Assembly: GCF_044647545.1 (NCBI RefSeq)
Contig: NZ_CP172818.1
Strand: one strand, 5' to 3'
DNA from: Escherichia coli
Lineage (GTDB): Bacteria > Pseudomonadota > Gammaproteobacteria > Enterobacterales > Enterobacteriaceae
DNA length: 64,000 nucleotides
The position numbers and the translations under genes were made by a program. The stretch's first letter is position 1, and each line of letters starts with the position of its first letter. Under the pieces are notes generated by a model. That model did no database searches, was not told where the DNA came from, and was given only the letters and a program-made list of their open reading frames with translations. Positions 28,560 through 46,305 of this stretch are shown one piece after another.

Positions 28560-28745
28560 TAATACCCGATCTTCTGCGCATCCTCGCGACTAATGACAAC
28601 CCTAACCCAGCCCAATGTGGGTAAAGCCTCTCATTAGCCGCGCGAACCTCTGCAACGGAAGATCATTCATAGCAACAATACATTAGTTTCCAGTGAATTG
28701 CTGCCGTCAGCTTGAAAAAAGGGGCCACTCAGGCCCCCTTTTCTG
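28560..28745 (+). ncRNA. psrO: PsrO (SraG) small RNA, approximate boundaries
   Basis: Recalled position of SraG in the rpsO-pnp intergenic region, opposite strand to both genes; no independent sequence signature verified. Confidence 0.35.
28713..28745 (-). terminator. rpsO Rho-independent terminator
   Basis: gaaaaaaggggccactcaggccccctttt hairpin 14 nt downstream of the rpsO stop. Confidence 0.7.
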
Positions 28746-28758
28746 AAACTCGCAAGAA

Positions 28759-29124
<366 letters not shown>

Positions 29125-30597: not shown

Positions 30598-30672
30598 TGG
30601 CCTGATAAGACGCGCCAGCGTCGCATCAGGCAATCCATGCCGGATGCGGCGTAAACGCCTTATCCCGCATGG
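30598..30672. repeat. REP elements in the infB-rbfA spacer
   Basis: gcctgataagacgcgccagcgtcgcatcaggc and gccggatgcggcgtaaacgccttatcccgcatgg. Confidence 0.7.
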
Positions 30673-30685
30673 AACCCTAAAAACC

Positions 30686-33358
30686 TTAAGCGATGGTACG
30701 TTGGATTTCGATGATTTCGAATACTTCGATCACATCGCCAGTGCGGACATCGTTGTAGTTCTTAACGCCGATACCACATTCCATACCGTTACGGACTTCG
30801 TTAACGTCATCTTTGAAGCGGCGCAGGGACTCCAGCTCGCCTTCGTAGATAACCACGTTGTCGCGCAGAACGCGGATCGGGTTGTGACGTTTAACCACAC
30901 CTTCGGTAACCATACAACCTGCGATGGCACCAAATTTCGGTGATTTGAATACGTCACGAACTTCCGCCAGACCGATAATCTGTTGTTTCAGTTCCGGAGA
31001 CAGCATACCGCTCATTGCCGCTTTCACTTCGTCGATCAGGTTATAGATGACGGAGTAGTAACGCAGATCCAGGCTTTCCGCTTCAATTACTTTACGTGCA
31101 GAGGCATCAGCACGTACGTTGAAGCCAACCAGGATGGCGTTGGACGCCGCAGCCAGGGTAGCGTCGGTTTCGGTGATACCACCTACGCCAGAACCGATGA
31201 TCTTCACTTTAACTTCGTCAGTAGACAGTTTCAGCAAGGAGTCGGAGATAGCTTCCACAGAACCCTGTACGTCTGCCTTCAGGACGATATTCACTTCGTG
31301 AACTTCGCCTTCGGTCATGTTGGCGAACATGTTCTCGAGTTTAGATTTCTGCTGACGCGCCAGTTTAACTTCGCGGAATTTACCCTGACGATAGAGTGCA
31401 ACTTCACGCGCTTTCTTCTCGTCACGTACAACGGTAACTTCATCACCCGCAGCCGGAACGCCGGACAGGCCGAGGATTTCCACCGGAATGGACGGACCCG
31501 CTTCCAGCACTTCCTGACCCAGTTCGTTACGCATCGCACGAACACGACCGTATTCGAAGCCACACAGAACGATATCGCCCTTGTGCAGAGTACCTTCACG
31601 TACCAGAACGGTAGCAACCGGACCACGACCTTTATCGAGGAAGGATTCGATAACCGCACCGCTCGCCATGCCTTTACGTACCGCTTTCAGTTCCAGAACT
31701 TCCGCCTGCAGCAGGATAGCGTCCAGCAGCTCATCGATACCAGTACCCGCTTTCGCAGACACATGTACGAACTGGCTTTCACCGCCCCACTCTTCCGGCA
31801 GGATGCCGTACTGGGAGAGTTCGTTCTTAACGCGATCCGGATCGGCTTCTGGTTTATCGATCTTGTTCACTGCAACGACCACCGGAACCTGCGCCGCTTT
31901 CGCGTGCTGGATTGCTTCGATGGTCTGCGGCATTACGCCGTCGTCGGCAGCAACAACCAGGACTACGATGTCCGTTGCCTGCGCACCACGAGCACGCATT
32001 GAAGTAAACGCGGCGTGCCCCGGGGTGTCCAGGAAGGTGATCATGCCGTTTTCAGTTTCAACGTGGTATGCACCAATGTGCTGGGTAATGCCGCCCGCTT
32101 CGCCAGAGGCCACTTTCGTTGAACGAATGTAGTCCAGCAGAGAGGTTTTACCGTGGTCAACGTGACCCATGATGGTCACAACCGGCGCGCGCGGTTCAGC
32201 CGCTGCACCCGTGTCACGGTCGCTCATTACCGCTTCTTCCAGCTCGTTTTCACGACGCAGAATAACTTTGTGGCCCATCTCTTCAGCAACCAGCTGTGCG
32301 GTTTCCTGATCGATAACCTGGTTGATGGTTGCCATTGCGCCCAGTTTCATCATCGCTTTGATGACCTGAGAGCCTTTAACCGCCATCTTGTTCGCCAGTT
32401 CGCCAACGGTGATGGTTTCACCGATCACAACGTCACGGTTAACGGCCTGAGCAGGCTTCTGGAAGCCTTGCTGCAGCGAAGAACCTTTACGTTTTCCGCC
32501 TTTACCGCCACGTACTGCTGCGCGTGCTTCTTCACGATCAGCTTTTGATTCAGCGTGTTTGTTGCCTTTCTTCGGACGCGCAGCTTTCGCGTTACGACCA
32601 CGGCCACGGCCGCCTTCGACTTCACGATCGCTTTCGTCTTCTGCCTGGCGAGCATGTTGAGAAGTAGTGACGTGATAATCGCTGGAATCTTCAGTCGGTT
32701 CCGCGTTATCAGTCCATTTGTTTTCTTCCGCCATACGACGTGCTTCTTCAGCAACGCGACGTGCTTCTTCTTCGAGTTTACGACGCGCTTCTTCTTCGGC
32801 TTTACGCTTGAGCTCTGCAGCTTCCTGCTCACGGCGGGCTTTTTCAGCCTGGGCGTTTTTAGTCATATCGTCTTGTTGATTGCTCACTTTGTCTTTTTCC
32901 GCAGCTTCACGTTTCGCTTGTTCAGCAGCTTCGCGCTTAGCTTGTTCTGCGGCCTCACGTTCAGCTTTTTGTTGCGCCTCACATTTGGCCGATTCTTCTG
33001 CCTCACGACGGGCTTGCTCTTCCGCTTCACGCTGCGCTTGCTCTTCCGCAGCAAGGCGTTCAGCCTCTTGCGGATCGCGTTTCACAAAGGTGCGTTTCTT
33101 GCGGACTTCGATTTGTACCGATTTGCTTTTTCCACCGGTACCAGGAATGTTAAGGGTGCTGCGTGTTTTACGTTGCAGCGTCAATTTGTCCGGGCCTGAA
33201 TTTTTCTGATTCAGGTGGTCAATCAAAGTCTGTTTCTCTTGTGCAGACACAGAGTCGTCAGCAGACTTCCGGATACCTGCATCAGCAAATTGCTGTACCA
33301 GGCGTTCCACGGAGGTCTGTCGCTCTGCGGCCAGCGTTTTAATCGTTACATCTGTCAT
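30686..33358 (-). CDS. infB: Translation initiation factor IF-2
   Basis: 890-aa ORF with GTPase motifs. Confidence 0.95.
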
Positions 33359-35350: not shown

Positions 35351-35410
35351 GCCCACCCCCAAGACATAAAAAAAGGGCCTAAAGCCCAGTTATTCTGTAG
35401 TCAGATAACA

Positions 35411-35434
35411 AAAAACCCCGATAAATCGGGGCTT
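35411..35434 (-). terminator. Hairpin with T-run between metY and rimP (attenuator/terminator)
   Basis: Minus strand agccccgatttatcggggtttttt. Confidence 0.55.
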
Positions 35435-35556
35435 TATATAACTGAACCCTATAACCGCAACTGCGGTCTGGAGCACTTTCCAGAAGGATTTTTTCAAATC
35501 CCACTACGAAGGCCGAAGTCTTCACAGTATATTTGAAAAAGGACTCTAAGGGAAAG

Positions 35557-35633
<77 letters not shown>

Positions 35634-39413: not shown

Positions 39414-39500
39414 TGGTACCGAGGACGGGACTTGAACCCGTAAGCCCTATTGGGCACTACCACCTCAAGGTAGCGTGTCTACCAATTCCACCACCTCGGC
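39414..39500 (-). tRNA. leuU: tRNA-Leu (anticodon GAG)
   Basis: Minus-strand 87-nt sequence gccgaggtggtggaattggtagacacgctaccttgaggtggtagtgcccaatagggcttacgggttcaagtcccgtcctcggtacca. Confidence 0.95.
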
Positions 39501-46057: not shown

Positions 46058-46305
46058 TTGTTATACCTCTTGAATATTCCTGATGGGGCAAGTCTTCACC
46101 CACCCCGGCTGTTCGGCCTGCCCGGCATAACTCCTCACCGGGACCAGAAGCAAAAAAAATACCGACCCGGGTACAGGTCCCAGGTCAGCTACAATTCACA
46201 TTTTGATAGTCATTTTACCCTGAAGTTCCCGAAGGGTCATCGTTTACTTTATAGGGCGTTGCGCCGTAGTATGACGGCTCGATTCCAGGTTGTTAGCGCG
46301 AGATT

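Follow-up and report, generated by a model that had tools for sequence, protein, structure and literature searches.

The octad-repeat tract in the N-terminal region of Escherichia coli IF-2 is conserved at the protein level and is predicted to form a long helix

The window, which is the whole 64,000-nucleotide stretch of DNA that was analysed, contains the E. coli infB gene on its minus strand at positions 30686-33358. This ORF encodes IF-2, a protein 890 aa long, as the initial annotation had recognized. Five Pfam domains match the predicted protein, all of them above their curated cut-offs: IF-2 (2e-43), GTP_EFTU (2e-39), EF-G_D2 (2e-29), IF2_N (4e-27), and IF2_assoc (2e-17). Residues 1-300 match the 890 aa E. 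coli IF-2 chain in PDB 3jcj_f (E = 3e-171), and PDB 1nd9_A aligns with residues 2-50. At the DNA level, infB in the window is 99.9% identical to annotated infB and differs by a single base from the closest annotated copy, that of strain FDAARGOS_497. The neighbouring ORFs, read together with the annotation of FDAARGOS_497, give the operon context metY-rimP-nusA-infB-rbfA-truB-rpsO. Rfam matches to the rimP leader, a tRNA, and the S15 leader were found around infB. The domain matches, the match to 3jcj_f, and the operon context all support the gene call.

The first 92 residues of the protein (33083-33358, minus strand), where IF2_N and IF2_assoc lie, comprise the N1 subdomain and a β-hairpin and are located upstream of the repeat that is the subject of this study. 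AlphaFold2 predicts helices at residues 6-13, 17-26, and 39-52 and strands at residues 58-72 and 78-92 of this region, with pLDDT values of 75-93. NusA is bound by residues 1-50 and 57-90 of IF-2 domain I, which are followed by a 'flexible linker' (PMC12297416). Beyond this module is a tract that we call block A, comprised of residues 98-157 (32888-33067, minus strand). The initial annotation had singled out a 60-residue peptide from an Ala/Glu/Arg/Gln-rich N-terminal region of IF-2. This peptide corresponds exactly to residues 98-157 of the ORF, which form a segment rich in Ala, Glu, Arg, Gln, and Lys, and a 56-nt string that was cited with it is at 32904-32959. Laursen et al., writing in 2004 (Protein Sci 13:230), reportedly described residues 98-157 of domain I as a helical, repetitive segment that joins IF2N to the conserved domains. 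Compared with domain I of IF-2 from E. coli K-12 (residues 1-157), the window has the same gene, the same residues, and the same seven octads, and it differs only at residue 126, where Cys replaces Arg. The octad tract of infB is thus already known biology, real but ordinary.

Block A contains seven tandem octads with the consensus R-E-A-x-E-Q-A-K. Register alignment placed units 1 to 7 on the minus strand at 33032-33055, 33008-33031, 32984-33007, 32960-32983, 32936-32959, 32912-32935, and 32888-32911, respectively. Nucleotide identity within block A at a lag of 24 was 0.68, compared with 0.38 ± 0.04 in codon-order shuffles (z 7.8), a level reached by 0 of 2,000 shuffles. At a lag of 48 it was 0.61 (z 5.4). 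No such periodicity was observed in two control segments of infB subjected to the same codon-order shuffle test. Tandem Repeats Finder (TRF) reported two arrays with a period of 24, one at 32893-32967 (3.1 copies, 78% matches) and the other at 32994-33049 (2.3 copies, 84%), and a separate repeat search of block A found a 24-nt spacing with 65-84% identity. In the protein, identity at a lag of 8 was 0.62 versus 0.21. These results, together with the flat controls, confirm the internal repetition noted in the initial annotation. The repeat units had been described as 18-24 nt long; however, the period of block A is 24 nt only. There is no signal in block A for an 18-nt period, and a 21-nt lag is confined to the next helical segment (block B, described below).

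We then compared the repeat as DNA with the repeat as protein. The units had been called near-identical, but pairs of octad units match at only 12-19 of 24 nt (50-79%), which is no more than the protein repeat forces. When synonymous codons were resampled, lag-24 identity was 0.651 ± 0.022 compared with the observed 0.679. Similarly, 17 of the 32 same-residue pairs across units share a codon, where 16.4 ± 2.8 are expected. Both measures fall inside the null expectation, and the idea that units were recently duplicated or converted by one another was rejected. With DNA units that agree at no more than 50-79% of positions and synonymous sites that seem random, this is an old repeat held at the protein level. 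In an alignment covering Enterobacterales and Vibrionales, Arg at octad position 1 is kept in 27 of 29 sequences. Among 24 sampled E. coli alleles, the point polymorphisms across codons 40-237 are all synonymous except for the R126C change in the window. The octad repeat is conserved as protein, not as DNA.

This one exception is at codon 126 (32981-32983, minus strand), which is TGT (Cys) and occupies position 1 of octad 4. It is the sole difference from the closest genome across 6,759 nt. A 61-mer carrying the Cys126 codon was found in 0 of 5,420 genomes, codon 126 in E. coli otherwise being CGT or CGC (Arg), and the corresponding alignment column contains R or K in 26 of 28 homologs. Arg126Cys (window position 32983) is private to this sequence and is possibly a sequencing error, which should be ruled out before any interpretation of the change.

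Directly after octad 7 is GTG codon 158 (32885-32887, minus strand; nt 472-474, the site of g474c in PMC3334882), which is the in-frame start of IF2-2 (beta). It is followed by ATG codon 165 (32864-32866, minus strand; nt 493-495, the site of t494c in PMC3334882), the in-frame start of IF2-3. The production of IF2-1 (alpha), IF2-2 (beta), and IF2-3 (gamma or beta-prime) from in-frame internal starts is long established (Plumbridge 1985 and Sacerdot 1992, cited in PMC3334882 and bioRxiv 10.1101/520783), and the internal starts have been detected in vivo in K-12 and BL21 (bioRxiv 10.1101/520783). Brandi et al. 2019 contains nothing on an internal start. The start codons in the window are at nucleotide positions identical to those of the published isoform system and nothing differs. 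Since block A ends before the hinge that holds GTG158 and ATG165, the octad tract is predicted to occur only in the full-length isoform. Several properties have been assigned to this isoform or to the residues specific to it. The alpha-specific extension hastens recruitment to the 30S complex (PMC13345285), growth on MMS needs IF2-1 (PMC3334882), and RNA no longer drives phase separation of the beta isoform, from which the first 158 residues are missing (PMC11838494).

The mRNA around these internal starts has little predicted structure. The 50 nt around GTG158 have an MFE of -2.5 kcal/mol, at the 98.9th percentile of the least structured infB windows, and the local MFE at ATG165 is -2.7 kcal/mol (98.3rd percentile of infB), versus a mean of -10.9 kcal/mol for the infB gene; the primary start has a comparable value (-3.5). 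Eight of the 10 least-structured 50-nt windows of infB begin at nt 445-472. The SD is weak at both GTG158 and ATG165 (-3.5 and -2.3 kcal/mol, respectively), and the short forms are still expressed when only 32 nt are kept upstream of the IF2-2 start (PMC3334882). These observations are consistent with a constraint that is partly at the mRNA level, with the last one to two octads acting as an A-rich, unstructured standby region from which ribosomes can start at GTG158 and ATG165 even though the SD is weak. We consider this quite possible, if short of probable. It explains the last octad or so but not seven units, and E. coli sequences differ freely at the synonymous sites of the tract. Across the alignment, M165 is kept in just 12 of 29 sequences, which also speaks against it, and Val158 in 23 of 29. 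An mRNA-level role would add to the protein-level explanation and does not compete with it.

In the AlphaFold2 model, residues 96-158 are an uninterrupted helix (pLDDT 75-88), which is followed by a break at residues 159-165 (pLDDT < 50) and a second helix at residues 166-218. The predicted break and the minimum of mRNA structure both coincide with GTG158 and ATG165. The pTM of the IF-2 model is just 0.28, so that the relative placement of the domains is undefined. Block A is 53% charged and 30% Ala, with a net charge of -6 and one large hydrophobic residue in 60. It contains 16 opposite-charge i,i+4 pairs compared with 7.8 ± 2.1 expected, a count reached by 2 of 5,000 shuffles, and 0 same-charge i,i+4 pairs compared with 7.9 expected. 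With Arg and Glu four residues apart throughout the tract, the most likely fold for block A is a single extended α-helix that is exposed to solvent, is stabilised by salt bridges, and resembles a charged single α-helix. The second helix, block B (32705-32863, minus strand), is also charged, is present in all isoforms, and has a weaker 7/8-residue repeat, with periodicity at lags of 21 and 24 (z about 3.5) and TRF rows at 32723-32806. It contains 20 opposite-charge i,i+4 pairs compared with 7.9 expected (0 of 5,000 shuffles) and 16 i,i+3 opposite-charge pairs compared with 8.0.

Charged single α-helices (the CSAH or ER/K motif) are exemplified in one account of the motif by myosin VI/X and caldesmon (PMC5812594). 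Block A is like them in its long predicted helix, its excess of opposite-charge i,i+4 pairs, its lack of same-charge i,i+4 pairs, and its near lack of large hydrophobic residues; it differs in being Ala/Gln-rich and only 53% charged, with a period of 8 residues and a net charge of -6. The charge content of classic ER/K helices tends to be higher than that of block A. Block B resembles the textbook case. Our literature search found no paper tying CSAH to IF-2.

This helical prediction has to be weighed against published descriptions of the same segment as a flexible linker (PMC12297416) or as part of an intrinsically disordered region (IDR) spanning residues about 50 to 294 (PMC11838494). In cryo-EM maps, IF-2 is unresolved upstream of Ser294 (PMC13345285). 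These descriptions, as well as the low AlphaFold2 pTM, favor a tract that is mainly a disordered, low-complexity polyampholyte mediating multivalent, RNA-dependent condensation in the cold rather than a helical spacer. We think this somewhat unlikely. The order of charges is non-random and helix-stabilising, with same-charge i,i+4 pairs entirely missing, and a polyampholyte defined by composition alone would need neither this order nor an Arg that hardly ever varies at position 1 of the octad. The continuity of the AlphaFold2 helix at pLDDT 75-88 also argues against disorder, and predicted helical regions of IF-2 have been described as 'in line with spectroscopy studies' (PMC11838494). The two views are compatible because a mobile helix can escape the maps and still promote condensation.

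The length of the tract in other bacteria also bears on this question. Block A sits inside the variable-length N-terminal IDR of bacterial IF-2 (PMC11838494), and genera differ in its length: in our alignment, 58-85 residues separate the conserved anchors. This comparison is less than a full cross-species census, because a homologous-protein search gave mostly N-terminal fragments. A strict multiple-of-eight length rule between genera was rejected, since only close relatives and a handful of +8 cases obey it. Distant taxa deviate by non-octad amounts, partly because the flanks vary too. Within Escherichia, and in the homologs nearest to it in the alignment (84-95% identical), tract length is fixed and octad register is kept. 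This speaks for an ordered element of constrained length over a generic disordered spacer.

A coiled-coil segment for dimerisation or oligomerisation is another reading, suggested by the long predicted helix and the short period of its sequence. This is very improbable because the period is 8 residues rather than the 7 of a heptad, the net charge is -6, and one large hydrophobic residue in 60 leaves no a/d hydrophobic seam.

Comparing repeat number between strains, as the initial annotation had proposed, showed that copy number differs rarely within E. coli. Whole-octad gains or losses were found in at least 23 of 5,425 complete genomes (0.4%), a lower bound from targeted queries. This census excludes the Nissle 1917 copy (CP007799), a divergent six-octad arrangement that is annotated as an incomplete pseudogene and has five matching places in the assembly. 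In a spread sample of the first search, the full-coverage matches were all exactly the 759-nt length of the query. The octad alleles contain 6-9 units, with a mode of 7, and have at least 10 distinct structures including chimeric units. All gains and losses are in frame, upstream of GTG158, and within block A, whereas the length of block B is constant. The longest exact direct repeat in block A is the 14-nt GCGGAAGAGCAAGC (coding strand), which has two copies at 33036-33049 and 33012-33025 (33012-33049 overall, minus strand). This is the recurrent site of gain and loss at octads 1/2, where natural -24 and +24 alleles were found at six loci and one further targeted query added four extra +24 alleles.

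The repeated origin of whole-octad gains and losses, giving 6-9 octads, might be taken as the mark of a hypervariable VNTR or contingency-type locus with a commonly strain-specific copy number that modulates IF-2. Such alleles occur in only about 0.4% of the 5,425 genomes, however, and the units are far from near-identical (50-79%, with no exact repeat longer than 14 nt), so this reading is effectively refuted and we regard it as highly unlikely. Frameshift switching is impossible with units whose length is divisible by three.

On the plus strand, two ORFs lie opposite the tract at exactly the coordinates where the initial annotation reported phantom ORFs generated by the repeat. One (32555-33199) is in the codon-aligned frame and encodes 214 aa rich in Phe, Leu, and Thr; the other (32880-33209), the second-longest open run in its frame, encodes 109 aa that are rich in Ser, Ala, Arg, and Cys and visibly repetitive. 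Neither has a Pfam match and both are artefacts, as had been supposed, but the repeat is not their cause. The infB gene contains 0 TTA, 0 CTA, and 5 TCA codons, and because these codons are rare gene-wide there are few antisense stops, with 5 in 2.67 kb of the codon-aligned antisense frame. A non-repetitive control (aa 450-670) has an antisense open run of 217 codons versus 216. Although both frames are long and open, the chance that either is a real antisense gene is negligible, since this openness is gene-wide, no promoter-like site was found in the region, the richness in Phe, Leu, Thr, Ser, and Cys is the reverse complement of Glu, Ala, Arg, and Lys codons, and the annotated genomes inspected list infB alone at the locus. 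Terminator-like sites in the region are at the shuffle level.

The explanation that best fits these results, and that we consider very probable, is that the octads are kept by selection on the protein and form a helical spacer specific to the full-length isoform, with occasional octad slippage and with antisense ORFs that are non-coding. The octad repeat would be ancient, and the 24-nt DNA period would be a by-product of the protein repeat, synonymous positions having drifted apart. The resulting helix, some 60 residues and about 9 nm in length, would be solvent-exposed and salt-bridged. It may serve as a semi-rigid spacer that separates the N1/β-hairpin module at the N terminus from the rest of IF-2, and would stop at the short hinge with GTG158 and ATG165. 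The last octad would also be inside the weakly structured, weak-SD mRNA stretch used for internal initiation. Exact matches of 8-14 nt between adjacent units would permit slippage or unequal exchange that adds or removes whole octads, giving alleles that are rare. No experiment varying tract length was found in the literature searched.

Synonymous-codon resampling allowed a repeat held at the protein level to be told apart from one held at the DNA level, and the peptide repeat accounts fully for the DNA periodicity. The comparison of strains amounts to a first, approximate census of the octad numbers that occur in nature; the variant alleles are recurrent and in frame, range over 6-9 units, and occur in about 0.4% of complete genomes. 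This census and the recent papers on NusA binding, condensates, and 30S recruitment raise the question of whether the length of the linker is important to the alpha isoform. It is conceivable, although we think it improbable, that octad number is a tuned molecular ruler in which seven octads (about 9 nm) set the reach from the NusA-binding N1 module to the ribosome-bound IF2-alpha core. If so, this would explain the constant length of the tract in > 99% of E. coli despite recurrent 6-, 8-, and 9-octad alleles, and the length alleles and R126C, in which one Arg-Glu rung is lost, would measurably affect transcription-translation coupling, cold adaptation, or DNA-damage tolerance.

The ORF listing contains a reading frame of 890 codons at 30686..33358 on the minus strand that we identify as infB. 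Its product has the complete IF-2 domain set in Pfam (IF2_N, IF2_assoc, GTP_EFTU, EF-G_D2, and IF-2), residues 1-300 match the E. coli IF-2 chain in PDB 3jcj (E = 3e-171), and residues 2-50 match the NMR structure of IF2N (1nd9). Annotated infB was matched by the window DNA in 5,425 of 5,426 complete E. coli genomes, with no match of any kind in the remaining one. The initial annotation had proposed repetitive DNA in the N-terminal region of this gene, and these data confirm both the gene and the location. The peptide of 60 residues that it quoted is exactly IF-2 residues 98-157 (window 32888-33067; block A), and its 56-nt string lies at 32904-32959. The gene is flanked upstream by argG, tRNA-Met, rimP, and nusA and downstream by rbfA and truB. 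Rfam matches above the gathering score were SraG sRNA (28571-28742, plus strand) and, on the minus strand, the S15 (rpsO) leader (28972-29086), the rimP leader (35368-35468), a tRNA in the metY position (35560-35633), a second tRNA (39417-39500), and the greA leader (46154-46275), all expected for this region of E. coli. Rfam also matched naRNA4 (nucleoid-associated ncRNA 4 / CssrE; 77 bits) at 30599-30669 on the minus strand, in the infB-rbfA intergenic region directly past the infB stop codon. Among E. coli genomes, the infB 5' region had one match on a plasmid record, and two records matched it at just 90-95% identity.

The proposed internal repeat is present. At a lag of 24 nt, nucleotide identity across codons 98-157 was 0.68 compared with 0.38 ± 0.04 when codon order was permuted with amino-acid and codon composition preserved (z 7.8; reached in 0 of 2000 shuffles), and at a lag of 48 it was 0.61 (z 5.4). 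Two infB control segments had no in-frame periodicity. Tandem Repeats Finder reported period-24 arrays at 32893-32967 and 32994-33049, and a second repeat search found copies spaced 24 nt apart with 65-84% identity. In register, block A forms seven octads with the consensus R-E-A-x-E-Q-A-K; a weaker second repeat block covers residues 166-215 at lags of 7 and 8 residues. The DNA units had been described as near-identical, which does not hold, since they share 12-19 of 24 nt. Re-encoding the protein with codons drawn at random from infB codon usage gave a lag-24 identity of 0.651 ± 0.022, and 618 of 5000 resamples reached the observed 0.679. The same codon is used in 17 of the 32 residue pairs that are identical at a distance of eight residues (16.4 expected), and protein identity at lag 8 is 0.62 versus 0.21 ± 0.05. 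These sequence comparisons argue that the octad repeat is old and maintained by selection on the peptide, which in turn gives rise to the 24-nt periodicity of the DNA. In agreement with maintenance at the protein level, 27 of the 29 aligned sequences, which range from Enterobacterales to Vibrionales, have Arg at octad position 1, and all point polymorphisms in codons 40-237 of 24 sampled E. coli alleles are synonymous except Cys126 of the window.

This exception is a TGT codon at 32981-32983 (minus strand) with the variant base at 32983. All 5,420 matching complete E. coli genomes have Arg (CGT or CGC) here, and none contains the 61-mer carrying the Cys126 codon. Residue 126 is the first position of octad 4, otherwise a conserved Arg; 26 of 28 homologs carry R or K there. 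The base is the sole mismatch to the closest genome across 6,759 nt; over 24 kb surrounding infB, at least eight genomes give matches whose bit score fits one mismatch, so that it is apparently the only difference there as well. Cys126 is either a very recent private missense mutation or a sequencing error.

Comparison of repeat number among strains, a check proposed in the initial annotation, revealed variation in at least 23 genomes (0.42%). The window has the standard seven octads. Of 40 hits spread across the 5,425 matching genomes, 39 were exactly as long as the query, and the other was a match split over the start of a circular record. Rare alleles were sought with synthetic queries having one octad fewer or one more, from which the top hits were retrieved. 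One REAAEQAK unit is lost in six genomes through three or four types of junction (retaining unit 1, retaining unit 2, or forming a chimera with the crossover in GAACAAGC), and AEEQAQRE is lost at octads 1/2 in four. A REAAEQAK unit is gained in seven genomes (arranged 1-1-2, 1-chimera-2, or 1-2-2), octads 1/2 are duplicated in four, REAQQKAE is duplicated in one, and two units are gained in one (1-2-1-2). Since a query ranks only alleles that resemble its model, the count of 23 is a minimum; it includes three genomes assigned from identical span and score without sequence retrieval. With at least 10 structurally distinct alleles in these genomes, octad gain and loss are thus recurrent. Octads 1/2 are a hot spot for these changes, and the tract's longest exact direct repeat (14 nt) falls at the same place. 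All length changes are multiples of 24 nt and lie upstream of GTG158, and block B, the second charged repeat helix (residues 166-218; 32705-32863, minus strand; mixed 7/8-residue periodicity), does not differ in length among the alleles inspected. In an older assembly of E. coli Nissle 1917, five places match the infB 5' region. One copy (NZ_CP007799.1, 5112486-5113094) is annotated as an incomplete pseudogene and has a divergent six-octad arrangement (REAEEQAK, REAQQKAK x2); it may reflect an assembly error or an infB fragment that is foreign or duplicated.

The initial annotation also attributed repeat-like phantom ORFs on the opposite strand to the repeat. These ORFs (32555-33199 and 32880-33209) exist exactly as given, neither has a Pfam match or promoter-like site, and their composition is that expected from the reverse complement of Glu/Ala/Arg/Lys codons. 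Their repetitive look does come from the repeat, but their openness does not: the antisense frame of a non-repetitive infB control segment is equally open. Because infB contains no TTA or CTA codons and only five TCA codons, stops occur just five times over the 2.67 kb of the antisense frame aligned with its codons. The earlier interpretation is right in substance but overstates how similar the DNA units are and what the repeat contributes to the antisense ORFs. A same-strand, Lys/Val-rich ORF of 135 aa that overlaps infB in another frame (32425-32832, minus strand) is most likely an artefact of biased composition.

AlphaFold2, given residues 1-300 and a 29-sequence alignment, predicted the N1 subdomain and a beta-hairpin at residues 1-92, a continuous helix at 96-158 (pLDDT 75-88), a low-confidence break at 159-165, and a second helix at 166-218. 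In block A, opposite-charge i/i+4 pairs number 16 versus 7.8 ± 2.1 in shuffles (reached by 2 of 5000), same-charge i/i+4 pairs are absent (7.9 expected), and just one of the 60 residues is a large hydrophobic. This pattern is far from random in the direction that stabilizes a helix; it argues against a coiled coil and fits a single helix stabilized by salt bridges. Classic ER/K helices are more charged and less Ala-rich than block A; block B has a more extreme charge pattern that resembles theirs more closely.

The published starts of IF2-2 (GTG158, 32885-32887) and IF2-3 (ATG165, 32864-32866), both on the minus strand and mutated as g474c and t494c in PMC3334882, lie inside the predicted hinge directly after the last octad, within the interval marked by the initial annotation. 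Start-site profiling has recovered both in vivo (bioRxiv 10.1101/520783). Since these starts are past the octads, the octad helix is confined to the alpha isoform (IF2-1). The mRNA around them is in the 98-99th percentile of least structure in infB, similar to the primary start, and anti-SD pairing is weak. Given this weak structure and the report that 32 nt upstream of GTG158 are enough for short-form expression (PMC3334882), the last octad is probably also part of an internal ribosome-landing region.

The underlying biology is already known. NusA binding has been assigned to residues 1-50 and 57-90 of domain I, and the authors describe the part after them as a 'flexible linker' (PMC12297416). 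The N-terminal region of IF-2 supports cold fitness, and RNA-driven phase separation is lost in the beta isoform (PMC11838494). The alpha-specific extension is invisible in cryo-EM, yet accelerates recruitment to the 30S pre-initiation complex (PMC13345285), and growth on MMS requires IF2-1 (PMC3334882). Tract length is not varied in any of these four papers. A disordered polyampholyte is a live alternative to a spacer and partly compatible with it. In our reading, the octad tract would act as a semi-rigid spacer that keeps the NusA-binding module some 9 nm away from the remainder of IF-2.
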